Below are positions 7,104 through 64,000 of a DNA stretch of 64,000 nt, piece by piece. The position numbers and the translations under genes are program-made. Position 1 is the first letter of the stretch. Each line of letters opens with the position of its first letter. Source of the DNA: Shigella phage ESh31; the sequence record ON528741; one strand, written 5' to 3'. Under the pieces are notes generated by a model. It saw nothing but the letters and a program-made list of their open reading frames with translations. It was not told the DNA's origin and searched no databases.

Positions 7104-8033
7104 ATGAAAACTCGTAAACATTATATTGATTATTTTGACAGTCTTATTACTAAACACCGTAATTATCAGATCGGGCACAGAGCAGTAATCAATAATATTC
7201 TTCGTGATTTCCTTCAATATGTTGGTCAGGAAAATCATATCTGTAAAGATACTCAAAACGCTTATTCTCATTCGTTAGGCAATTTGCTTGAATGGTTTAA
7301 ACGTTCTCGTATGTTATCTTCTACTGTAGCTCGTGATAACATTAAAAACTTTATGAAGCCGAGCTTCATTAAATCTGCGACATCTATAACTGATTTGGTT
7401 GAATTTACTATTGTTAACGATGTTAAAAAGACCCATTTGGCTGATTGGTTATCTACCATTCCTGAAACTAAATTTGCTGATAAATTTGCTTGTCAATTCA
7501 ATGACCAAGTGAATATGCTTTTTAAGCATGCTCGCAAGCTGTTTACTGCAGGCGATGACCGTACAAATACAGTTCATGTTAAGGACTGGGTTATTGCTGA
7601 TGAAGTAACACATAAGCCAGGTGGTTCATCAGTATTAATTAATATCCAGGTTCCTTATTATTACTCACGTAATCTTGGCACCATGACAGCTAAAGAAATT
7701 AATAAGCACAACAAAACTATTCGTTCGTTGTCTTATAAACTCCGCATGATGTTAAAAATTATGGACGTAGTGGAAATGTATGACGAAACCGAAGATAATG
7801 GTTCAATGTTATACAGTTCACGCATTCTAATTAAACTGAAGAACCCTAATACATATAAGACAGTTGTAAAAGAGCCTAAAGTAGAAAAGGTTGATAATCT
7901 GAGTGAAGAACGTGAATATCTCAATGCCCGTTTGATTGAAGTTGAAGCCCAAATTGCAGAACACACCAAATTGTTAAAAGCTCTTAATGCAAAAGCAAAT
8001 GGTTTACGTAATGCTATTGAGGTATTGAAATGA
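7104..8033 (+). CDS. hypothetical protein with C-terminal coiled coil
   Basis: 309 aa; C-terminal tail [42 protein letters not shown]. Confidence 0.5.
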   Translation: MKTRKHYIDYFDSLITKHRNYQIGHRAVINNILRDFLQYVGQENHICKDTQNAYSHSLGNLLEWFKRSRMLSSTVARDNIKNFMKPSFIKSATSITDLVEFTIVNDVKKTHLADWLSTIPETKFADKFACQFNDQVNMLFKHARKLFTAGDDRTNTVHVKDWVIADEVTHKPGGSSVLINIQVPYYYSRNLGTMTAKEINKHNKTIRSLSYKLRMMLKIMDVVEMYDETEDNGSMLYSSRILIKLKNPNTYKTVVKEPKVEKVDNLSEEREYLNARLIEVEAQIAEHTKLLKALNAKANGLRNAIEVLK

Positions 8034-10769: not shown

Positions 10770-12583
10770 CAATTGAAAAAGAAATTGAAGGATTGATTCA
10801 TAAAACTAATAAAGACCTTTTAAACGAGAATGCTAATAAAGATTCTCGTGTTTTTCCAACTCAACGGGACCTTATGGCTGGTATTGTGTCTAAACACATT
10901 GCCAAAAATATGGTCCCGTCTTTTATTATGAAAGCGCATGAAAGCGGAATTATTCATTTCCATGATATTGATTATTCCCCTGCTCTTCCATTTACTAATT
11001 GCTGTTTAGTAGATTTAAAAGGAATGCTTGAGAACGGATTTAAGCTTGGTAATGCACAGATTGAAACTCCTAAATCAATTGGCGTTGCTACTGCAATTAT
11101 GGCACAAATTACTGCACAGGTTGCTTCCCATCAATATGGCGGAACGACTTTTGCTAATGTAGATAAAGTACTTTCTCCTTATGTTAAACGCACCTATGCA
11201 AAACATATTGAGGATGCAGAAAAATGGCAAATCGCTGATGCGTTAAATTATGCTCAATCTAAAACAGAAAAAGATGTATACGATGCATTCCAAGCTTATG
11301 AATATGAAGTAAATACTCTCTTTAGTTCAAACGGACAAACACCTTTTGTAACAATTACATTTGGTACAGGAACTGACTGGACTGAACGAATGATTCAGAA
11401 AGCAATTCTGAAAAATCGTATTAAAGGTCTTGGTCGTGATGGGATAACTCCTATTTTCCCTAAGCTTGTTATGTTTGTTGAAGAAGGTGTTAATCTTTAT
11501 AAAGACGATCCGAACTATGATATTAAACAGCTTGCTCTAGAGTGCGCAAGCAAAAGAATGTATCCTGATATTATTTCAGCTAAGAACAATAAAGCTATCA
11601 CCGGCTCATCTATTCCTGTTTCTCCAATGGGTTGCCGTAGTTTCTTGAGCGTATGGAAAGATTCGACTGGTAATGAAATTCTTGATGGACGTAATAATCT
11701 CGGTGTTGTAACACTGAATCTTCCTCGTATCGCGTTAGATTCTTATATTGGAACACAATTCAATGAACAGAAATTTGTTGAATTGTTCAATGAACGAATG
11801 GATTTATGTTTTGAAGCATTGATGTGTAGAATTAGTTCCTTAAAAGGAGTTAAAGCGACTGTTGCTCCTATTCTTTACCAAGAAGGTGCATTCGGGGTTC
11901 GTCTTAAACCTGATGACGATATAATTGAGTTATTTAAAAATGGTAGAAGTTCAGTGTCTCTAGGATACATTGGTATTCACGAATTGAATATTCTTGTCGG
12001 TCGTGATATTGGACGAGAAATTTTAACTAAAATGAATGCTCGTCTTAAACAATGGACTGAAAGAACTGGGTTTGCTTTTAGTTTGTATTCTACTCCTGCT
12101 GAAAACCTTTGTTATCGCTTCTGTAAACTTGATACAGAAAAATATGGAAGTGTAAAAGATGTTACCGATAAAGGCTGGTACACTAACAGTTTCCACGTTT
12201 CAGTAGAAGAAAATATTACTCCGTTTGAAAAGATTTCTCGTGAAGCGCCATATCATTTCATTGCGACAGGTGGTCACATTTCTTATGTTGAACTTCCTGA
12301 TATGAAAAATAACTTGAAAGGCCTTGAGGCCGTATGGGATTATGCTGCACAACATTTAGATTATTTTGGTGTTAATATGCCAGTAGATAAATGTTTTACA
12401 TGTGGAAGTACCCATGAAATGACTCCTACTGAAAACGGATTTGTTTGTTCTATTTGTGGAGAAACTGATCCTAAAAAGATGAACACAATAAGAAGAACAT
12501 GTGGTTATTTGGGAAATCCGAACGAACGCGGATTTAATCTCGGTAAAAATAAAGAAATCATGCATAGGGTTAAACACCAATGA
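10766..12583 (+). CDS. nrdD: anaerobic ribonucleoside-triphosphate reductase, uninterrupted
   Basis: 605 aa; C-terminal glycyl-radical motif RRTCGYLG; C-terminal Cys cluster; no intron. Confidence 0.9.
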   Translation: MTIEKEIEGLIHKTNKDLLNENANKDSRVFPTQRDLMAGIVSKHIAKNMVPSFIMKAHESGIIHFHDIDYSPALPFTNCCLVDLKGMLENGFKLGNAQIETPKSIGVATAIMAQITAQVASHQYGGTTFANVDKVLSPYVKRTYAKHIEDAEKWQIADALNYAQSKTEKDVYDAFQAYEYEVNTLFSSNGQTPFVTITFGTGTDWTERMIQKAILKNRIKGLGRDGITPIFPKLVMFVEEGVNLYKDDPNYDIKQLALECASKRMYPDIISAKNNKAITGSSIPVSPMGCRSFLSVWKDSTGNEILDGRNNLGVVTLNLPRIALDSYIGTQFNEQKFVELFNERMDLCFEALMCRISSLKGVKATVAPILYQEGAFGVRLKPDDDIIELFKNGRSSVSLGYIGIHELNILVGRDIGREILTKMNARLKQWTERTGFAFSLYSTPAENLCYRFCKLDTEKYGSVKDVTDKGWYTNSFHVSVEENITPFEKISREAPYHFIATGGHISYVELPDMKNNLKGLEAVWDYAAQHLDYFGVNMPVDKCFTCGSTHEMTPTENGFVCSICGETDPKKMNTIRRTCGYLGNPNERGFNLGKNKEIMHRVKHQ

Positions 12584-17392: not shown

Positions 17393-18595
17393 ATGAAAGT
17401 ATGTATTTTTATGGCTCGAGGTCTTGAAGGTTGTGGTGTAACAAAATTCTCACTCGAGCAACGTGATTGGTTTATTAAAAATGGTCATGAAGTAACTTTG
17501 GTTTATGCTAAAGATAAATCATTTACTCGTAATTGCGCGCATGATTATAAATCATTTTCAATTCCGGTTTTATTGGCAAAAGAATACGATAAAACACTTA
17601 AGCTGGTAAATGATTGTGATATTCTAATTATCAATTCAGTTCCTGCTACTTCGGTTGAAGAAGACACTATTAATAACTATAAAAAAATTATTGATAACAT
17701 TAAACCTTCTGTTCGTGTTGTAGTTTATCAGCATGACCATTCTTCTCTTTCTTTGCGTCGAAATTTGGGATTAGAAGAAACTGTTCGTCGAGCTGATGTT
17801 ATTTTTAGCCATTCTGATAATGGTGATTTTAATAAAGTTCTGATGAAAGAATGGTATCCTGAAACAGTTTCTCTGTTTGATGATATTGAAGAAGCACCGA
17901 CCGTATATAACTTTCAGCCTCCTATGGATATTGCGAAAGTTCGATCAACCTATTGGAAAGATGTTTCTGAAATTAATATGAATATCAACCGTTGGATTGG
18001 TCGTACGACTACATGGAAAGGTTTTTATCAGATGTTTGATTTTCACGAAAAACATCTTAAACCTGCAGGACTAAGTACTATTATGGAAGGTCTGGAACGT
18101 TCTCCAGCGTTCATTCCTATTAAAGAAAAAGGAATTCCATACGAGTATTATCGTCTTCATCAAGTAGACCAAATTAAAATTGCTCCTAATTTGCCAACGC
18201 AAATTCTTGACCGTTATGTAAATAGCGAAATGCTTGAACGCATGAGTAAATCCGGATTTGGTTATCAACTGAGTAAGTTGGACAAAAAATATTTACAACG
18301 TTCTTTAGAATATACTCATCTCGAGCTTGGTGCATGTGGAACAATTCCGGTATTTTGGAAATCTACTGGCGAAAATTTAAAATTCCGTGTTGATAATACT
18401 CCTTTGACCTCGCATGATAGCGGTATCATTTGGTTTGATGAAAATGATATGGAATCAACATTTGAACGTATTAAAGAACTGTCATCTGACCGAGCTCTTT
18501 ATGACCGTGAGCGAGAAAAAGCATATGAATTTTTGTATCAGCATCAAGATTCAAGCTTCTGCTTTAAAGAACAGTTTGACATTATTACAAAATAA
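17393..18595 (+). CDS. agt: DNA alpha-glucosyltransferase
   Basis: 400 aa; near-identical to T4 alpha-gt as I recall it; AAGAGG RBS; flanked by UUCG hairpins. Confidence 0.9.
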   Translation: MKVCIFMARGLEGCGVTKFSLEQRDWFIKNGHEVTLVYAKDKSFTRNCAHDYKSFSIPVLLAKEYDKTLKLVNDCDILIINSVPATSVEEDTINNYKKIIDNIKPSVRVVVYQHDHSSLSLRRNLGLEETVRRADVIFSHSDNGDFNKVLMKEWYPETVSLFDDIEEAPTVYNFQPPMDIAKVRSTYWKDVSEINMNINRWIGRTTTWKGFYQMFDFHEKHLKPAGLSTIMEGLERSPAFIPIKEKGIPYEYYRLHQVDQIKIAPNLPTQILDRYVNSEMLERMSKSGFGYQLSKLDKKYLQRSLEYTHLELGACGTIPVFWKSTGENLKFRVDNTPLTSHDSGIIWFDENDMESTFERIKELSSDRALYDREREKAYEFLYQHQDSSFCFKEQFDIITK

Positions 18596-18634: not shown

Positions 18635-18775
18635 ATGATATTTCTTGGATATGTGATACTTTTTCTTGCATTTTATCTATTCACTAGAGCGTGCTGGATT
18701 GGGTTCTTTAGCACTCCAGATGGATTTATTTCAATAATTTTATTTTGCATTTCAATGACGGTTCTTGATATATGA
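18635..18775 (+). CDS. hypothetical small membrane protein (46 aa)
   Basis: GGAG RBS; hydrophobic sequence MIFLGYVILFLAFYLF...; stop overlaps the next start. Confidence 0.3.
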   Translation: MIFLGYVILFLAFYLFTRACWIGFFSTPDGFISIILFCISMTVLDI

Positions 18776-19395
18776 AAAAATATATAACTTATTTAACAAT
18801 ATATAGTGGAGATAAACTTCCTCCTTTTTATATTGGATCTACGTCTTTAGATAGGCATTTAGCTGGATATCATGGTTCAGTTTTATCTAAAAAGTATAAG
18901 AAAATTTATAATAAAGAGCTTTCAGATAATCCTCACTTATTTGATTCATGCATTTTAGCTGAATTTGATACACGTGAAGAAGCTATTAAATGCGAGTTAT
19001 ATTATCAACGATTGCATGATGCAGTTAAAAATCCATTATTCTTTAATATGTCATATGCTGCTCCAAAAGGTTCATTTGGAAGAGATAATAAAGGACAAAA
19101 TCATCCATTATATGGTTCTCATAATTGTAAAGGAAATATACATTCACATGATCCATTAACAGGAAAATCTGCCTTTTTGCCTTATATTCCAGAAGGTTAT
19201 GTAAAAGGAAGGTCAAATAAATTTAAAGCTTCATCACATAATAAAGGTAAAAAATGGTATAATAACGGAGTTAAGCAAATGTTATGTCATGAACCTCCTG
19301 GTCCTGAATGGACAAAAGGAAAAATTAAAGAACTAGTTTCAAAAGCAGCTAAATTAGGATGGAAAAGACACCATGAAAATACTAAACTTGGGTGA
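18772..19395 (+). CDS. GIY-YIG family endonuclease-like protein (Seg-like)
   Basis: 207 aa; N-terminal TIYSG-x9-FYIGSTS spacing like GIY-x10-YIG with downstream R..H and conserved-Glu pattern; overlaps the gene 47 start by 23 nt. Confidence 0.45.
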   Translation: MKKYITYLTIYSGDKLPPFYIGSTSLDRHLAGYHGSVLSKKYKKIYNKELSDNPHLFDSCILAEFDTREEAIKCELYYQRLHDAVKNPLFFNMSYAAPKGSFGRDNKGQNHPLYGSHNCKGNIHSHDPLTGKSAFLPYIPEGYVKGRSNKFKASSHNKGKKWYNNGVKQMLCHEPPGPEWTKGKIKELVSKAAKLGWKRHHENTKLG

Positions 19396-26150: not shown

Positions 26151-28847
26151 ATGAAAGAATTTTATATCTCTATCGAAACAGTCGGAAATAATATTGTTGA
26201 ACGTTATATTGATGAAAACGGAAAGGAACGTACTCGTGAAGTAGAATATCTTCCAACTATGTTTAGGCATTGTAAGGAAGAGTCAAAATACAAAGACATC
26301 TATGGTAAAAATTGTGCTCCTCAAAAATTTCCATCAATGAAAGATGCTCGAGATTGGATGAAACGAATGGAAGACATCGGTCTCGAAGCTCTCGGTATGA
26401 ACGATTTTAAACTCGCTTATATCAGTGATACATACGGTTCAGAAATTGTTTATGACCGAAAATTTGTTCGTGTAGCTAACTGTGACATTGAGGTTACTGG
26501 TGATAAATTTCCTGACCCAATGAAAGCTGAATATGAAATTGATGCTATCACTCATTACGATTCAATTGATGATCGTTTTTATGTTTTCGACCTTTTGAAT
26601 TCAATGTACGGTTCAGTATCAAAATGGGATGCAAAGTTAGCTGCTAAGCTTGACTGTGAAGGTGGTGATGAAGTTCCTCAAGAAATTCTTGACCGAGTAA
26701 TTTATATGCCATTCGACAATGAGCGTGATATGCTCATGGAATATATTAATCTTTGGGAACAGAAACGACCTGCTATTTTTACTGGTTGGAATATTGAGGG
26801 ATTTGACGTTCCGTATATCATGAATCGCGTTAAAATGGTTCTCGGTGAACGTAGTATGAAACGCTTCTCTCCAATCGGTCGAGTAAAATCTAAACTTATC
26901 CAAAATATGTACGGTAGCAAAGAAATTTATTCTATTGATGGCGTATCTATTCTTGATTATTTAGATTTGTATAAGAAATTCGCATTTACTAATTTGCCGT
27001 CATTTTCTTTGGAATCAGTTGCTCAGCATGAAACCAAAAAAGGTAAATTACCATACGACGGTCCTATTAATAAACTTCGTGAGACTAATCATCAACGATA
27101 CATTAGTTATAACATCATTGACGTAGAATCAGTTCAAGCAATTGATAAAATTCGCGGGTTTATCGATCTAGTTTTAAGTATGTCTTATTACGCTAAAATG
27201 CCTTTTTCTGGTGTAATGAGTCCTATTAAAACCTGGGATGCTATTATTTTTAACTCATTGAAAGGTGAACATAAGGTTATTCCTCAACAAGGTTCGCATG
27301 TTAAACAGAGTTTTCCGGGTGCATTTGTGTTTGAACCTAAACCAATTGCTCGTCGATATATTATGAGTTTTGACTTGACGTCTCTGTATCCGAGCATTAT
27401 TCGTCAGGTTAACATTAGTCCTGAGACTATTCGTGGTCAGTTTAAAGTTCATCCAATTCATGAATATATCGCAGGAACAGCTCCTAAACCGAGTGATGAA
27501 TATTCTTGTTCTCCGAATGGATGGATGTACGATAAGCATCAAGAAGGTATCATTCCAAAGGAAATCGCTAAAGTATTTTTCCAGCGTAAAGATTGGAAAA
27601 AGAAAATGTTCGCTGAAGAAATGAATGCCGAAGCTATTAAAAAGATTATTATGAAAGGCGCAGGGTCTTGTTCAACTAAACCTGAAGTTGAACGATATGT
27701 TAAGTTCAGTGATGATTTCTTAAATGAACTATCGAATTATACTGAATCTGTTCTCAATAGTTTGATTGAAGAATGTGAAAAAGCGGCTACACTTGCTAAT
27801 ACAAATCAGCTGAACCGTAAAATTCTTATTAACAGCCTTTACGGCGCTCTTGGTAATATTCATTTCCGCTACTATGATTTGCGAAATGCTACTGCTATTA
27901 CAATTTTTGGTCAAGTCGGTATTCAGTGGATTGCTCGTAAAATTAATGAGTATCTGAATAAAGTATGTGGAACTAATGGCGAAGATTTCATCGCAGCAGG
28001 TGATACTGATTCGGTATATGTTTGTGTAGATAAAGTTATTGAAAAAGTTGGTCTTGACCGATTCAAAGAGCAGAACGATTTAGTTGAATTCATGAATCAG
28101 TTCGGTAAGAAAAAGATGGAACCTATGATTGATGTTGCATATCGTGAGTTATGTGATTATATGAATAACCGCGAGCATCTGATGCATATGGACCGTGAAG
28201 CTATTTCTTGCCCTCCGCTTGGTTCAAAGGGTGTCGGTGGATTTTGGAAAGCGAAAAAACGTTATGCTCTGAACGTTTATGATATGGAAGATAAGCGATT
28301 TGCCGAACCGCATCTAAAAATTATGGGTATGGAAACTCAACAGAGTTCAACACCAAAAGCAGTACAAGAAGCTCTCGAAGAAAGTATTCGTCGTATTCTT
28401 CAGGAAGGTGAAGAGTCTGTCCAAGAATATTACAAGAACTTCGAGAAAGAATATCGTCAACTTGACTATAAAGTTATTGCTGAAGTAAAAACTGCGAACG
28501 ATATAGCGAAATATGATGATAAAGGTTGGCCAGGATTTAAATGTCCGTTCCATATTCGTGGTGTGCTAACTTATCGTCGAGCTGTTAGCGGTTTAGGTGT
28601 AGCTCCAATTTTGGATGGAAATAAAGTAATGGTTCTTCCATTGCGTGAAGGAAATCCATTTGGTGACAAATGCATTGCTTGGCCGTCGGGTACAGAACTT
28701 CCAAAAGAAATTCGTTCTGACGTACTGTCTTGGATTGACTACTCAACTTTGTTCCAAAAATCGTTTGTTAAACCGCTTGCAGGCATGTGTGAATCGGCTG
28801 GTATGGACTATGAAGAAAAAGCTTCGTTAGACTTCCTGTTTGGCTGA
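26151..28847 (+). CDS. 43: DNA polymerase gp43 (family B)
   Basis: 898 aa; exonuclease and polymerase motifs (YGDTDS); C-terminal clamp-binding tail SLDFLFG. Confidence 0.95.
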   Translation: MKEFYISIETVGNNIVERYIDENGKERTREVEYLPTMFRHCKEESKYKDIYGKNCAPQKFPSMKDARDWMKRMEDIGLEALGMNDFKLAYISDTYGSEIVYDRKFVRVANCDIEVTGDKFPDPMKAEYEIDAITHYDSIDDRFYVFDLLNSMYGSVSKWDAKLAAKLDCEGGDEVPQEILDRVIYMPFDNERDMLMEYINLWEQKRPAIFTGWNIEGFDVPYIMNRVKMVLGERSMKRFSPIGRVKSKLIQNMYGSKEIYSIDGVSILDYLDLYKKFAFTNLPSFSLESVAQHETKKGKLPYDGPINKLRETNHQRYISYNIIDVESVQAIDKIRGFIDLVLSMSYYAKMPFSGVMSPIKTWDAIIFNSLKGEHKVIPQQGSHVKQSFPGAFVFEPKPIARRYIMSFDLTSLYPSIIRQVNISPETIRGQFKVHPIHEYIAGTAPKPSDEYSCSPNGWMYDKHQEGIIPKEIAKVFFQRKDWKKKMFAEEMNAEAIKKIIMKGAGSCSTKPEVERYVKFSDDFLNELSNYTESVLNSLIEECEKAATLANTNQLNRKILINSLYGALGNIHFRYYDLRNATAITIFGQVGIQWIARKINEYLNKVCGTNGEDFIAAGDTDSVYVCVDKVIEKVGLDRFKEQNDLVEFMNQFGKKKMEPMIDVAYRELCDYMNNREHLMHMDREAISCPPLGSKGVGGFWKAKKRYALNVYDMEDKRFAEPHLKIMGMETQQSSTPKAVQEALEESIRRILQEGEESVQEYYKNFEKEYRQLDYKVIAEVKTANDIAKYDDKGWPGFKCPFHIRGVLTYRRAVSGLGVAPILDGNKVMVLPLREGNPFGDKCIAWPSGTELPKEIRSDVLSWIDYSTLFQKSFVKPLAGMCESAGMDYEEKASLDFLFG

Positions 28848-28860
28848 TAGAATAAATCTA

Positions 28861-28882
28861 GGGACCTCCGGGTCCCTTTTTC
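28861..28882 (+). terminator. UUCG-type tetraloop terminator
   Basis: GGGACC-TCCG-GGTCCC followed by TTTTTC. Confidence 0.55.
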
Positions 28883-28963
28883 ATACAAGTAATATAAATC
28901 TATACTTATGAAAAACAGATGATTCTGGACCTTTAGAATTCCCTAAAAAATTTTCACAAAACT

Positions 28964-29027
28964 GTTTACAAGACTGTTCTTCCATGGTACTATACAACTA
29001 TCAACTAATACGGATTTGGAGAATAAA
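28964..29027 (+). promoter_or_regulatory. early promoter/leader cassette (PeSL-like)
   Basis: GTTTACAAGACTGTTCTTCCATGGTACTATACAACTATCAACTA...GGAGAATAAAATG; near-identical copies at 56210 and 59852. Confidence 0.5.
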
Positions 29028-29264
29028 ATGAAAATTGTTATGGGATGCTTAGCAGTTTGTTTAGTTGCATTAGCAGCAGTTCCATTTGTTAGTGTTGAAA
29101 ATGATACTCAACCTGTGATTGAATCTAGCACCGTTATTCACACTAATGGTAAAATATCAGTTAAAATTGATGATAATCTTCATGTGAATACAAATGGATC
29201 TTTAGGTGTGCAAATGGGTAATACCTGCATAAGCACTACTGGAGTAATTACTACTTGCATTTGA
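29028..29264 (+). CDS. small secreted protein (signal peptide)
   Basis: 78 aa from the internal Met; N-terminal hydrophobic signal MKIVMGCLAVCLVALAAVPF. Confidence 0.45.
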   Translation: MKIVMGCLAVCLVALAAVPFVSVENDTQPVIESSTVIHTNGKISVKIDDNLHVNTNGSLGVQMGNTCISTTGVITTCI

Positions 29265-29274
29265 GGAAATTATT

Positions 29275-29655
29275 ATGAAAATCGCTATTTTGGTTATTGC
29301 ATTAGGTCTTACTGGTTGTGTAGCTCAAGGACCGGTAGTAAATCAGTCTGATGTAGGAAAAATTGTAAACTGTTCAAGCAAATTTTATAATCCTAATGTC
29401 AAGTGTTATAAAGAAGCTCCAAAGCAAACAGTCGAACAAATGCAGGCGAATTTTGACGAAGCTATTCGTCCAGATGAATCTGCTCAAGCATATCGTAATT
29501 CTGATGTAATTACACGCGAAGAAAAAATTGAAAACTACTGCGCCGAGCTTTGGGCTAATTGGGCTAATAATTACCAATGGCGTACTGGTAAAAATGCTCC
29601 GATGGAGTATGTAGTGAATTCTTATAATTCATGCGTAAAAAATTTGACTAAGTGA
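29275..29655 (+). CDS. predicted lipoprotein
   Basis: 126 aa; signal peptide with lipobox LTGC (MKIAILVIALGLTGCVAQ); GAGG RBS. Confidence 0.5.
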   Translation: MKIAILVIALGLTGCVAQGPVVNQSDVGKIVNCSSKFYNPNVKCYKEAPKQTVEQMQANFDEAIRPDESAQAYRNSDVITREEKIENYCAELWANWANNYQWRTGKNAPMEYVVNSYNSCVKNLTK

Positions 29656-29662
29656 GGAAAAC

Positions 29663-29914
29663 ATGGAAACTTTAGTAGCAGGTTCAATTTTTATGGTTTT
29701 AGTTTCAGGTGTGTTGGCTATTATTATATACATGCTTCCATGGTTTATCGCCTTGATGCGTGGGTCAAAATCGACAGTAGGAATCTTTTTCACATCTTTA
29801 CTGTTTAACTGGTCAATTATTGGTTGGTTTATTACATTTATTTGGTCAATTGCGGGTGAAACTAAAAAGTCTGCACAGCCAAATCAGGTAATTATCATCA
29901 GAGAGAAGGAATGA
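29663..29914 (+). CDS. imm: superinfection immunity membrane protein Imm
   Basis: 83 aa; two transmembrane helices; length and position upstream of gene 42 match T4 imm. Confidence 0.6.
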   Translation: METLVAGSIFMVLVSGVLAIIIYMLPWFIALMRGSKSTVGIFFTSLLFNWSIIGWFITFIWSIAGETKKSAQPNQVIIIREKE

Positions 29915-30060
29915 AAAGCAAAATTATAGCAGTGTTGCTTTTAATCTTGATGATTATAATAAGTATATACTATAGTGTAACGGTTCCTCTTATGATTCCA
30001 ACTATTATTTTAGGTTGGAGCTTATTACTGTTACAAGTTAAATATGAATGTATCAATTGA
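29911..30060 (+). CDS. hypothetical small membrane protein (49 aa)
   Basis: ATGA overlap with imm; strongly hydrophobic; below the track cutoff. Confidence 0.35.
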   Translation: MKSKIIAVLLLILMIIISIYYSVTVPLMIPTIILGWSLLLLQVKYECIN

Positions 30061-30067
30061 GGTTTAA

Positions 30068-30808
30068 ATGATTAGTGACTCTATGACAGTTGAAGAAATC
30101 CGTCTTCATTTGGGGCTTGCATTAAAAGAAAAAGATTTCGTAGTTGATAAAACTGGCGTTAAAACTATTGAAATTATTGGCGCATCATTTGTAGCAGATG
30201 AACCCTTTATTTTTGGCGCTCTTAATGATGAATACATTCAGCGTGAACTTGAATGGTACAAGTCTCAAAGTCTGTTTGTTAAAGATATTCCAGGTGAAAC
30301 ACCAAAGATTTGGCAGCAGGTAGCATCTTCTAAAGGCGAAATTAACTCGAATTATGGTTGGGCTATTTGGTCAGAAGATAACTATGCCCAGTATGATATG
30401 TGTTTAGCTGAACTTGGTCAAAATCCTGATTCTCGACGTGGTATCATGATTTATACTCGTCCATCTATGCAGTTTGACTATAATAAAGATGGTATGTCAG
30501 ATTTCATGTGCACGAATACAGTACAGTACCTGATTCGTGACAAGAAAGTCAATGCAGTAGTAAGCATGCGCTCAAATGACGTGGTCTTCGGATTCCGTAA
30601 TGATTATGCATGGCAAAAATACGTATTAGATAAATTAGTATCTGATTTGAATGCAGGCGATTCAACTCGTCAGTATAAAGCAGGTTCTATTATATGGAAT
30701 GTTGGAAGTCTTCATGTATATTCTCGTCATTTTTACTTGGTTGATCATTGGTGGAATACTGGCGAAACTCATATTGTGAAAAAAGACTATAAAGGTGAGT
30801 GGAAATGA
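30068..30808 (+). CDS. 42: dCMP hydroxymethylase
   Basis: 246 aa; thymidylate-synthase-like fold; matches T4 gp42. Confidence 0.9.
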   Translation: MISDSMTVEEIRLHLGLALKEKDFVVDKTGVKTIEIIGASFVADEPFIFGALNDEYIQRELEWYKSQSLFVKDIPGETPKIWQQVASSKGEINSNYGWAIWSEDNYAQYDMCLAELGQNPDSRRGIMIYTRPSMQFDYNKDGMSDFMCTNTVQYLIRDKKVNAVVSMRSNDVVFGFRNDYAWQKYVLDKLVSDLNAGDSTRQYKAGSIIWNVGSLHVYSRHFYLVDHWWNTGETHIVKKDYKGEWK

Positions 30809-31647
30809 TTCAATTCGTAATTCCAAGTTATCAACGTGTCGGGGCAGTTTCTGCCCTTGATATGTTTCCGACTGATTATGAACCGCATATTGTAGTGCGT
30901 GAACACGAAGAAAAAGCTTATTATGATGCTTATGGGTCTAGAGCTAAAATTATAACTATTCCTGATGATGTAAACGGAATTGCCGGTACTCGTAAAGCAA
31001 TTACTGATATGTATGCAGGTCAACGAATTTGGATGATTGACGATGATACTACTATTCGTATGAGTTCAATGCGAAAAAGAGATGACCGTCGTTGTGTGGA
31101 TAAAGTCAATCAATTGACTCATGAACAGTTCTATGAATTGATTCAATATGTTGAGGATGCCATGGATTGCGGGTATTATCATGGCCATGCTCGTCTACCT
31201 ATTTTTAAAATTACTTCATCTTGGGGTAATTATCGTGAAAATTCATACGGATTCACGAATACATGGTATGACCTCGGAAAACTTACGACAGAACAAATTG
31301 GGTATGGAAAAATTGATTTATGCGAAGATATGTATGCATTTCTCAATTTAATTAATCAAGGCTATCCGCATTTGGCCTTGTTCAAATATCTGGTTGTATC
31401 TGGAAAAGCACAAGCTCCTGGCGGGTGCAGTTCAATTCGTAGTAATTCTAAACATAATAGAGCGCTTGAGCAAATCAATAGAGAGTTTCCAGAGCAAGCT
31501 CGTTGGAAAACTTCTAATATTGAAAAACGAAAATCGTTGGGTGAAGAAGATGAACCACTAAAGGTTCTTCGCATGTGTGTTTCACGTAAAGAAAAATCAG
31601 AAGCATTTCATAAGTTTAATGCTATTCATCCAATAGCAGTTGATTAA
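30799..31647 (+). CDS. GT-A type glycosyltransferase at the beta-gt locus (candidate beta-glucosyl-HMC alpha-glucosyltransferase)
   Basis: 282 aa; DxD-type motif WMIDDDTT; occupies the position of T4 beta-gt but is shorter and unrelated in sequence. Confidence 0.5.
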   Translation: MEMIQFVIPSYQRVGAVSALDMFPTDYEPHIVVREHEEKAYYDAYGSRAKIITIPDDVNGIAGTRKAITDMYAGQRIWMIDDDTTIRMSSMRKRDDRRCVDKVNQLTHEQFYELIQYVEDAMDCGYYHGHARLPIFKITSSWGNYRENSYGFTNTWYDLGKLTTEQIGYGKIDLCEDMYAFLNLINQGYPHLALFKYLVVSGKAQAPGGCSSIRSNSKHNRALEQINREFPEQARWKTSNIEKRKSLGEEDEPLKVLRMCVSRKEKSEAFHKFNAIHPIAVD

Positions 31648-31672
31648 TGCCTAAATTTATTGTGTTATAATT
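31647..31672 (+). promoter_or_regulatory. middle promoter candidate upstream of uvsX
   Basis: Imperfect MotA-box-like TGCCTAA about 12 bp upstream of TATAAT. Confidence 0.35.
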
Positions 31673-31724
31673 ACTCTATCTTTAACCAGTGAGGAAAATA
31701 TAATGATGCCTATGGAAAAAATGA

Positions 31725-32906
31725 ATGTCTATTGCAGATTTAAAATCCCGTTTGATTAAAGCTTCCACTTCTAAAATGACTGCTGAACTGACTACATCTA
31801 AATTCTTTAATGAAAAGGATGTAATCCGTACAAAAATCCCAATGCTGAATATTGCTATTTCTGGTGCGATTGATGGCGGCATGCAGTCTGGTTTAACTAT
31901 TTTTGCAGGTCCTTCTAAACACTTTAAATCAAATATGTCTTTGACTATGGTTGCGGCATATTTGAACAAATATCCTGACGCGGTTTGTCTATTCTATGAT
32001 AGTGAATTTGGTATTACTCCAGCTTATTTGCGATCCATGGGAGTTGACCCGGAACGAGTAATTCATACGCCGATTCAGTCAGTTGAACAGCTGAAAATTG
32101 ATATGGTGAATCAGCTTGAAGCTATTGAGCGTGGTGAAAAGGTTATTGTATTCATCGACTCAATCGGTAATATGGCTTCTAAGAAAGAAACGGAAGACGC
32201 CTTGAATGAAAAATCTGTGGCAGATATGACTCGTGCTAAATCACTGAAGTCATTATTTCGTATTGTTACTCCTTATTTTAGCATTAAAAATATTCCATGT
32301 GTTGCGGTTAACCATACAATTGAAACACTTGAAATGTTTAGTAAAACCGTGATGACAGGTGGTACAGGCGTAATGTATTCGGCTGATACTGTATTCATTA
32401 TCGGTAAGCGTCAGATTAAAGATGGTTCTGATCTTCAGGGGTATCAATTTGTTCTAAATGTAGAAAAATCTCGTACCGTTAAAGAAAAAAGTAAATTCTT
32501 TATTGATGTTAAATTTGACGGTGGTATCGATCCTTATTCTGGATTGTTAGATATGGCTCTAGAATTAGGATTTGTAGTAAAACCTAAGAATGGTTGGTAT
32601 GCTCGTGAATTTCTTGACGAAGAAACCGGCGAGATGATTCGCGAAGAAAAATCTTGGCGTGCAAAAGATACCAACTGCACTACATTCTGGGGTCCTTTAT
32701 TTAAGCATCAACCATTCCGAGATGCTATTAAACGTGCTTATCAGTTAGGTGCTATTGATAGTAATGAAATTGTTGAAGCTGAAGTTGATGAATTGATTAA
32801 CTCAAAGGTTGAAAAATTTAAATCTCCAGAAAGTAAAAGTAAATCAGCAGCTGATTTAGAAACTGACCTCGAGCAGTTAAGTGATATGGAAGAATTTAAT
32901 GAATAA
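31725..32906 (+). CDS. uvsX: recombinase UvsX (RecA-like)
   Basis: 393 aa; Walker A GPSKHFKS; matches T4 UvsX. Confidence 0.9.
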   Translation: MSIADLKSRLIKASTSKMTAELTTSKFFNEKDVIRTKIPMLNIAISGAIDGGMQSGLTIFAGPSKHFKSNMSLTMVAAYLNKYPDAVCLFYDSEFGITPAYLRSMGVDPERVIHTPIQSVEQLKIDMVNQLEAIERGEKVIVFIDSIGNMASKKETEDALNEKSVADMTRAKSLKSLFRIVTPYFSIKNIPCVAVNHTIETLEMFSKTVMTGGTGVMYSADTVFIIGKRQIKDGSDLQGYQFVLNVEKSRTVKEKSKFFIDVKFDGGIDPYSGLLDMALELGFVVKPKNGWYAREFLDEETGEMIREEKSWRAKDTNCTTFWGPLFKHQPFRDAIKRAYQLGAIDSNEIVEAEVDELINSKVEKFKSPESKSKSAADLETDLEQLSDMEEFNE

Positions 32907-37923: not shown

Positions 37924-37994
37924 ATATCCTCCTTATTGCTTTATATATTTATTGTATAATTAATCTACTAACCCATGAATTGAAAGGAAAAATA

Positions 37995-63465: not shown

Positions 63466-63495
63466 AGACCCTCCTTTTAAGGATATTTATTCAAA

Positions 63496-64000
<505 letters not shown>

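Follow-up and report, generated by a model that had tools for sequence, protein, structure and literature searches.

We have analyzed the gene located between gene 42 and uvsX in a 64,000-nucleotide segment of the genome of Shigella phage ESh31 (sequence record ON528741); this whole segment is referred to below as the window, and its positions are used throughout. There is little doubt, in our view, that this gene (ba-gt, also named ggt or TAGT; plus strand, 30805-31647, 280 codons and a stop) encodes a beta-glucosyl-HMC-alpha-glucosyltransferase of the T2/T6 type, an enzyme that makes the alpha-gentiobiosyl form of hydroxymethylcytosine (HMC, or hmC), and that a T6-like modification pattern is the most likely outcome. 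The gene is intact and typical of its family, whose biochemical definition dates from the 1960s and which was re-examined in papers of 2024-2026. Its identity, position and consequence have all been described before; this is a long-known enzyme and no new biology is claimed here. The T2/T6 enzyme is EC 2.4.1.28. The family was cloned in the 1990s, and Winkler and Rueger are said to have cloned the T2 and T6 ba-gt genes in 1993.

Identity of the gene

The predicted protein is identical to the phage T2 enzyme at 277 of 280 residues, in a gap-free BLASTP alignment (99%), and it matches PHROG 842, which is named beta-glucosyl-HMC-alpha-glucosyltransferase, with an E-value of 2e-89. A sequence-only reading of the window had proposed a transferase of the T2/T6 type at this locus, and the BLASTP comparison bears it out. 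The single Pfam match is to PF20691 (TET-associated glycosyltransferase, TAGT), which is covered from profile position 2 to 205 of 205 with a score of 39.1 bits, the gathering score being 27.5 bits. A tblastn search of 50,697 phage records found matches in 688 of them, with E-values down to 2e-179, which rules out a chance open reading frame (ORF). At least 90% identity was found in 472 of the 688, almost all of them T4-like phages of Escherichia, Shigella, Yersinia or Salmonella, and about 200 further records, from Klebsiella, Enterobacter and Citrobacter relatives, match at 60-80%. The G+C content of the ORF (0.35-0.38) matches that of its neighbours and thus carries no mark of a recent foreign origin. 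There is no second copy or paralog of ba-gt in the 64-kb window.

The window is a segment of a Tequatrovirus (T-even) genome in the orientation opposite to the standard T4 map. The gene order is gene 43 DNA polymerase (26151-28847), small ORFs of the imm region, gene 42, ba-gt, uvsX, gene 40 and gene 41. The placement between gene 42 and uvsX given in the sequence-only reading is correct: gene 42, encoding deoxycytidine monophosphate (dCMP) hydroxymethylase, occupies 30068-30808 on the plus strand (Pfam Thymidylat_synt; 96% nucleotide identity to the T4 gene 42 region), and uvsX lies at 31725-32906. The position after gene 42 and before uvsX is the same in T2, T6, Solly, EH2 and Geo. The window gene resembles the ba-gt genes of T2 and T6 (ggt, g-gt) in this position, in its overlap with gene 42 and in having an alpha-glucosyltransferase partner, and that of T2 also in length. 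The TAGT family was named for members found beside TET/JBP dioxygenases, whereas the window member serves the hmC pathway of the thymidylate-synthase-like gp42, and its acceptor is a sugar already present on the DNA rather than the base.

The plus-strand ORF in the mechanical ORF list runs from the first GTG at 30799 to 31647 and has 282 codons. The length of 282 amino acids quoted previously is right for this mechanical ORF, but the protein itself probably has 280, the real start being most likely the ATG at 30805. The start region reads AAAGGTGAGTGGAAATGATTC; within it a Shine-Dalgarno-like AGGTGA (plus strand, 30793-30798) stands 6 nt 5' of this ATG. The ATG belongs to an ATGA (plus strand, 30805-30808) in which it overlaps the TGA stop codon of gene 42 (30806-30808), an overlap shared by the annotations of T2, Solly, EH2, Geo, PKO111 and STML-198. 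In four of these records (T2, Solly, EH2 and Geo) the gene is annotated as the 843-nt form, whose start is the ATG 6 nt downstream of the GTG. Three points, namely the distance from the ribosome-binding site, the ATGA overlap and the way the orthologs are annotated, led to the choice of ATG 30805 over GTG 30799 as the true start; the two extra codons, GTG GAA (plus strand, 30799-30804), probably form no part of the translated protein. All residue numbers refer to the 280-residue form with Met at 30805.

Comparison with the T4 beta-glucosyltransferase

No similarity between the window protein and the T4 beta-glucosyltransferase (beta-gt, 351 residues) was detected by BLASTP (best E-value 0.28, over 10 residues), and a tblastn search of the whole 64-kb window with T4 beta-gt gave nothing better than an E-value of 1.3. 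Homology to T4 beta-gt was rejected on these results, in agreement with the earlier remark that the two proteins do not resemble each other. They also belong to different Pfam families, PF20691 here and PF09198 for T4 beta-gt. Nucleotide alignment with T4 (96% identity) breaks off at 30790 and starts again at 31737, so that the T4 block of beta-gt and segA (~1.9 kb) is replaced exactly by the single ba-gt gene (~0.95 kb). The two enzymes have in common that they depend on uridine diphosphate (UDP)-glucose, form a beta linkage, modify hmC DNA and are encoded between 42 and uvsX. They differ, without homology, in fold (GT-B for T4 beta-gt (PMC13216743) versus a predicted GT-A, GT denoting glycosyltransferase) and in acceptor, which is bare hmC for T4 beta-gt and alpha-glucosyl-hmC for ba-gt.

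The transferase at this locus had been described as "non-T4". This is accurate insofar as the gene is not T4 beta-gt, but the arrangement is no departure from the norm, being the common state in Tequatrovirus (PMC13216743). The combination of alpha-GT and beta-GT seen in T4 is present in only 6 of 753 phage genomes that carry such transferases, most of which pair a TAGT with either an alpha-GT or a beta-GT (PMC13216743). The pairing of alpha-gt with ba-gt is the majority state in the genus, to which the gene assigns this phage as well, and T4 is the exception.

In two phages of other genera, CC31 (Karamvirus; extract L012, 201-1228) and STML-198 (Gelderlandvirus; extract L014, 207-1228), gene 42 is followed by a TAGT gene and then by beta-gt; over its first 65 residues the CC31 beta-gt shares 57% identity with that of T4. 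Since both genes adjoin in these phages, the "beta-gt position" is in fact two adjacent slots. Judged from these gene orders, the states of T4 (beta-gt only) and of the window (TAGT only) look like reciprocal loss from a two-gene cassette, or cassette exchange, and not like the replacement of one gene by an analog.

The partner gene and the expected DNA chemistry

The first glucosylation would be carried out by the product of a-gt (alpha-gt; plus strand, 17393-18595), which makes the alpha-glucosyl-hmC that ba-gt extends. This is a complete ORF of 400 amino acids that matches Pfam AGT over positions 1-355 of 355 (788 bits) and PHROG 2888, and it is 92% identical to T4 alpha-gt (366 of 400 residues), so the intact alpha-gt previously reported to begin at 17393 is confirmed. 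Of its 400 positions, 34 differ from the T4 protein and 35 from the T6 and Geo proteins. The sequence is a mosaic: its N-terminal 46 and C-terminal 80 residues are identical to T4 and T6, and the differences cluster at residues 47-118 and 221-276. These clustered regions may affect site choice or the interaction with the replisome (gp45).

By sequence relationship to the characterized systems, gp42 would supply hydroxymethyl-dCMP for incorporation into DNA, alpha-gt would place alpha-glucose on roughly two-thirds to three-quarters of the hmC after replication, and ba-gt would move glucose from UDP-glucose onto this first glucose in beta-1,6 linkage, giving alpha-gentiobiosyl-hmC. With UDP-alpha-glucose as donor and a beta linkage in the product, the reaction must be an inverting one.

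The chemistry of related phages has been established directly. T2 and T6 lack beta-gt, and their second transferase (ba-gt, ggt or g-gt) puts a beta-linked glucose on alpha-glucosyl-hmC to yield gentiobiosyl-hmC. The hmC of T2 DNA is ~70% alpha-glucosylated, 5% gentiobiosylated and 25% bare, and that of T6 DNA ~3%, 72% and 25% (bioRxiv 10.64898/2026.02.25.707755; PMC11078745). Ten new Tequatrovirus isolates analyzed by high-performance liquid chromatography and mass spectrometry all carry alpha-GT together with TAGT at the locus syntenic to T4 beta-GT, and beta-glucosyl-hydroxymethyldeoxycytidine (hmdC for the unglucosylated nucleoside) was detected in none of them (PMC13390438). Solly, EH2 and five others have about one-third hmdC, two-thirds alpha-gentiobiosyl-hmdC and a trace of alpha-glucosyl-hmdC, while Geo, EL and BGP have a ~1:2:2 composition with ~40% gentiobiosyl (PMC13390438).

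The suggestion that this modification changes sensitivity to glucose-dependent restriction needs some qualification. Gentiobiosyl-hmC does resist Brig1 in vitro, and BapA cannot release its glucose; on the other hand, T6 stays sensitive to Brig1 in vivo, and GmrSD still targets gentiobiosyl DNA (bioRxiv 10.64898/2026.02.25.707755; PMC11078745; PMC13216743). When ba-gt is deleted from T6 only alpha-glucosyl-hmC is made, Brig1 degrades the DNA in vitro and the mutant is more Brig1-sensitive (PMC11078745); likewise, BapA frees glucose from the DNA of the T6 ba-gt deletion but not from wild-type T6 DNA (bioRxiv 10.64898/2026.02.25.707755). The bare hmC that remains (25-33%) exposes phages to Brig3 (bioRxiv 10.64898/2026.02.25.707755; PMC11078745; PMC13216743). 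The presence of the gene therefore predicts a defence outcome: the DNA should be a poor Brig1 substrate in vitro and should not be deglucosylated by BapA, and it should still be open to GmrSD/BrxU-type enzymes and to the hmC glycosylase Brig3. The value of the assignment lies in annotation, and it is useful when choosing therapeutic phages or interpreting host range.

Predicted fold and catalytic residues

A search of PDB sequences for a solved structure gave no matches at E-values up to 1, and the fold was therefore predicted. The protein was compared with its family through an alignment (A2) of homologs that reach down to 28-32% identity, the word-indexed protein search having yielded 11 homologs. 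Forty columns are invariant in this alignment, all of which are kept in the window protein. Among them are P7-S8-Y9-x-R11 after the first strand, R32, G58, T62 and R63, D79-D80-D81, D175, and G206-G207-x-S209-x-x-R212.

An AlphaFold2 model built on this small alignment reached a predicted TM-score (pTM) of 0.77 and a mean predicted local distance difference test score (pLDDT) of 74. The N-terminal half, of alternating strands and helices, is modelled with confidence, and two loops are poorly defined. The best Foldseek matches in the PDB are mostly GT-A/GT2 enzymes, namely K4 chondroitin polymerase (K4CP), TarP, TarS, AvpGT and WrtF, with probabilities near 1 and TM-scores of 0.35-0.45. The predicted structure has the single Rossmann-like domain of the GT-A fold, and a GT2-like GT-A fold is accordingly predicted for the window enzyme; the T6 TAGT has likewise been modelled as a GT-A fold, sister to GT2 (PMC13216743).

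The DxD motif noted in the sequence-only reading, WMIDDDTT, is present: the three codons Asp79-Asp80-Asp81 lie at 31039-31047 on the plus strand, at a strand end in the predicted GT-A fold. By analogy with the GT2 enzymes, the DDD motif would hold a divalent metal and the diphosphate of the UDP-sugar. Asp175, in the sequence C-E-D (Glu174-Asp175 codons, plus strand, 31324-31329), begins helix 174-184 of the model; from the analogy to the GT2 ED motif it is the candidate for the catalytic base.

Ortholog variation and the expected glucosylation ratio

The residue differences among the orthologs of T2, both T6 records, Solly, EH2 and Geo were tabulated. Solly is among the genomes closest to the window (97.2% over 24 kb), and the window protein is identical to the Solly and EH2 proteins at 279 of 280 positions. 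The sole difference is residue 106 (codon at 31120-31122, plus strand), which is His in the window and in T6 and Arg in Solly, EH2, T2 and Geo. Solly and EH2, phages of the Durham collection whose enzyme goes by the name TAGT in PMC13390438, also share the locus and the lack of beta-gt, and their DNA has been measured by liquid chromatography-mass spectrometry. The window protein has R11, H106 and P251 against H11, R106 and S251 in T2; thus it has neither of the two residues private to T2 (H11, S251), nor any of the seven private to Geo. From the T6 RefSeq protein (279 residues, aligned over its full length) it is separated only by Y40N, D55G and the Asp79 that T6 lacks. There is no dam gene in the window, where T4 homology jumps from T4 position 17725 to 16825 at 37934/37955; dam is also missing from the Solly group, but not from Geo, EL and BGP (PMC13390438).

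With an enzyme one residue away from those of Solly and EH2, without the T2- and Geo-private residues and without dam, a T6/Solly-like pattern is to be expected. The DNA of this phage most likely contains mostly gentiobiosyl-hmC, with a quarter to a third bare hmC and no beta-glucosyl-hmC, if relatives of the same gene content are a guide. The T2/T6-style modification proposed in the sequence-only reading gains support from its direct measurement in Solly and EH2 (PMC13390438).

Several considerations weigh against this reading. The pattern is predicted for this phage from its genes and from the chemistry of relatives. The structural model is moderately confident, residues 131-139 and 192-211 have pLDDT below 50, and the TM-scores to GT2 enzymes are low; the roles proposed for individual residues are consequently no more than putative. 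Near-identical enzymes also accompany unlike gentiobiosyl levels (5% in T2, ~40% in Geo, EL and BGP, ~67-72% in T6 and Solly); having the gene therefore does not by itself tell the ratio, and the 35 of 400 differences of alpha-gt from T6 and Geo could shift it too. In view of these alpha-gt differences, the exact ratio of mono- to di-glucosyl hmC in this phage is something that we infer. The right enzyme could then work at a low or intermediate level, giving T2-like DNA (mostly alpha-glucosyl-hmC, ~5% gentiobiosyl) or Geo-like DNA (~1:2:2). The variation in levels among near-identical enzymes speaks for this outcome, which Solly/EH2 and T6 escape and T2, Geo, EL and BGP do not, as do H106 in place of the Arg of Solly and EH2 and the divergence of alpha-gt. 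We nevertheless consider it unlikely, since the protein has none of the T2- or Geo-specific residues, H106 is the residue of T6, and the window lacks dam as the Solly group does, unlike Geo, EL and BGP (PMC13390438).

Two further readings concern specificity rather than level. The TAGT family is diverse, its homologs adjoin beta-gt in CC31 and STML-198, and in many phages a TAGT occurs alone, with neither an alpha-GT nor a beta-GT (PMC13216743); family membership alone therefore leaves specificity unfixed, and the enzyme might use another sugar, form another linkage, or act on hmC or beta-glucosyl-hmC. Such a specificity is very improbable for a protein 99% identical to that of T2 and one residue off the enzymes of phages with measured gentiobiosyl DNA (PMC13390438), in a window that holds no beta-gt to supply a beta-glucosyl acceptor. 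It is scarcely credible that the gene is a diverged or truncated T4 beta-gt adding a single beta-glucose to hmC. The position beside gene 42 and the loose labels "b-gt" or "beta-glucosyltransferase" on some orthologs might suggest it, but this candidate is refuted by the lack of sequence similarity and the differing Pfam families; in addition, a GT-A fold is predicted here versus GT-B for T4 beta-gt (PMC13216743), and no beta-glucosyl-hmdC was detected in phages of like gene content (PMC13390438). We thus retain the T2/T6-type transferase with a T6-like pattern.

One of the T2-private residues falls at a conserved site. The Arg11 codon (CGT; plus strand, 30835-30837) lies in the loop that follows the first beta-strand (IPSYQR), and Arg11 is invariant in the family alignment down to ~30% identity; His is found in T2 only (CAT; T2 extract L001, 3037-3039). 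All 8 of 8 T2/SV76 records share an exact 111-nt stretch here, and RB14, among the next-closest, differs from T2 by that base alone. To judge from these sequence differences, H11, together with S251, is a candidate reason for the low (5%) gentiobiosylation of T2.

The two public T6 records each carry an apparent lesion in this gene, and the window copy has neither. MH550421 (extract L003, reverse strand, 7138-7980) has TAG at codon 10, which is CAG in the other T6 record and CAA in the window, and its coding sequence is annotated from Met20 (261 residues). NC_054907/AP018814 (extract L006, 1211-2050) lacks 3 nt, so that one Asp of the DDD motif is lost (WMIDDTT, 279 residues), and this RefSeq protein is the TAGT reference used in PMC13216743. 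As T6 is the classic 72%-gentiobiosyl phage, the lesions are presumably errors of sequencing, mutations specific to a stock, or changes that the enzyme tolerates.

The junction with gene 42

The 91 nt around the ba-gt start fold into two hairpins with a minimum free energy of -29.3 kcal/mol (z -4.3 against shuffles). These predicted mRNA structures span 30794-30866 on the plus strand: the ribosome-binding site and the AUG are enclosed in the first (30794-30832), and the second (30833-30866) has the G+C-rich core stem GGGGCAG/CTGCCC (GGGGCAG-nnn-CTGCCC) at 30841-30857. In a comparison of six sequences from four genera both stems persist, their bases being either invariant or changed on one side of the pair only. 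The stem bases of the second hairpin are invariant across the four genera, and its loop and nearby synonymous sites vary. Covariation analysis of the six sequences found no compensatory pairs in these hairpins, so the structure stays a prediction.

The two genes are read in the same direction and ba-gt overlaps the gene 42 stop codon, which makes translational coupling between them probable; the modelled hairpins fit such coupling without proving it. A scan of 28800-31800 for the sigma-70 consensus gave 19 matches versus 13.0 +/- 3.5 in shuffles, which is not clearly above expectation, with none between gene 42 and ba-gt.

A more tentative proposal, which we regard as possible rather than probable, is that single-residue variants set the ratio of mono- to di-glucosyl hmC (low in T2 via H11 and/or S251; T6-like and mostly gentiobiosylated with the R11 and P251 of the window) and that the conserved hairpin ties ba-gt translation to gene 42. 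If true, the ratio would be readable from sequence; this would refine a known system and leave the identity of the gene unchanged.

Other differences from T4 in the window

Several optional or mobile elements of T4 are missing from the window: the nrdD intron with I-TevII, mobC, mobB, dam, segF and the gene 60/mobA insertion. In the comparison with T4 the junctions fall at 11301/11304, ~12590, 17377/17402, 37934/37955, 38476/38544 and 51551/51616. The gene 60/mobA insertion splits the topoisomerase large subunit in T4; since it is missing here, gene 39 is presumably one uninterrupted gene, and the translational bypass region of gene 60 is apparently lacking as well.

No nucleotide match to T4 was found at the window ends (63491-64000 and 1-248) or at 18779-19372. 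The 3' end of the window lies beyond T4 position 160197, beside gene 38. T2-type and T4-type phages carry unrelated gp38 proteins. In place of the small T4 gene 47.1, between alpha-gt and gene 47, the window has an ORF of 207 amino acids (plus strand, 18772-19395) for a GIY-YIG/seg-like homing endonuclease, which matches PHROG 10820 with an E-value of 1e-94 and, weakly, the Pfam GIY-YIG family at 21.4 bits, just under the cut-off of 22.6.

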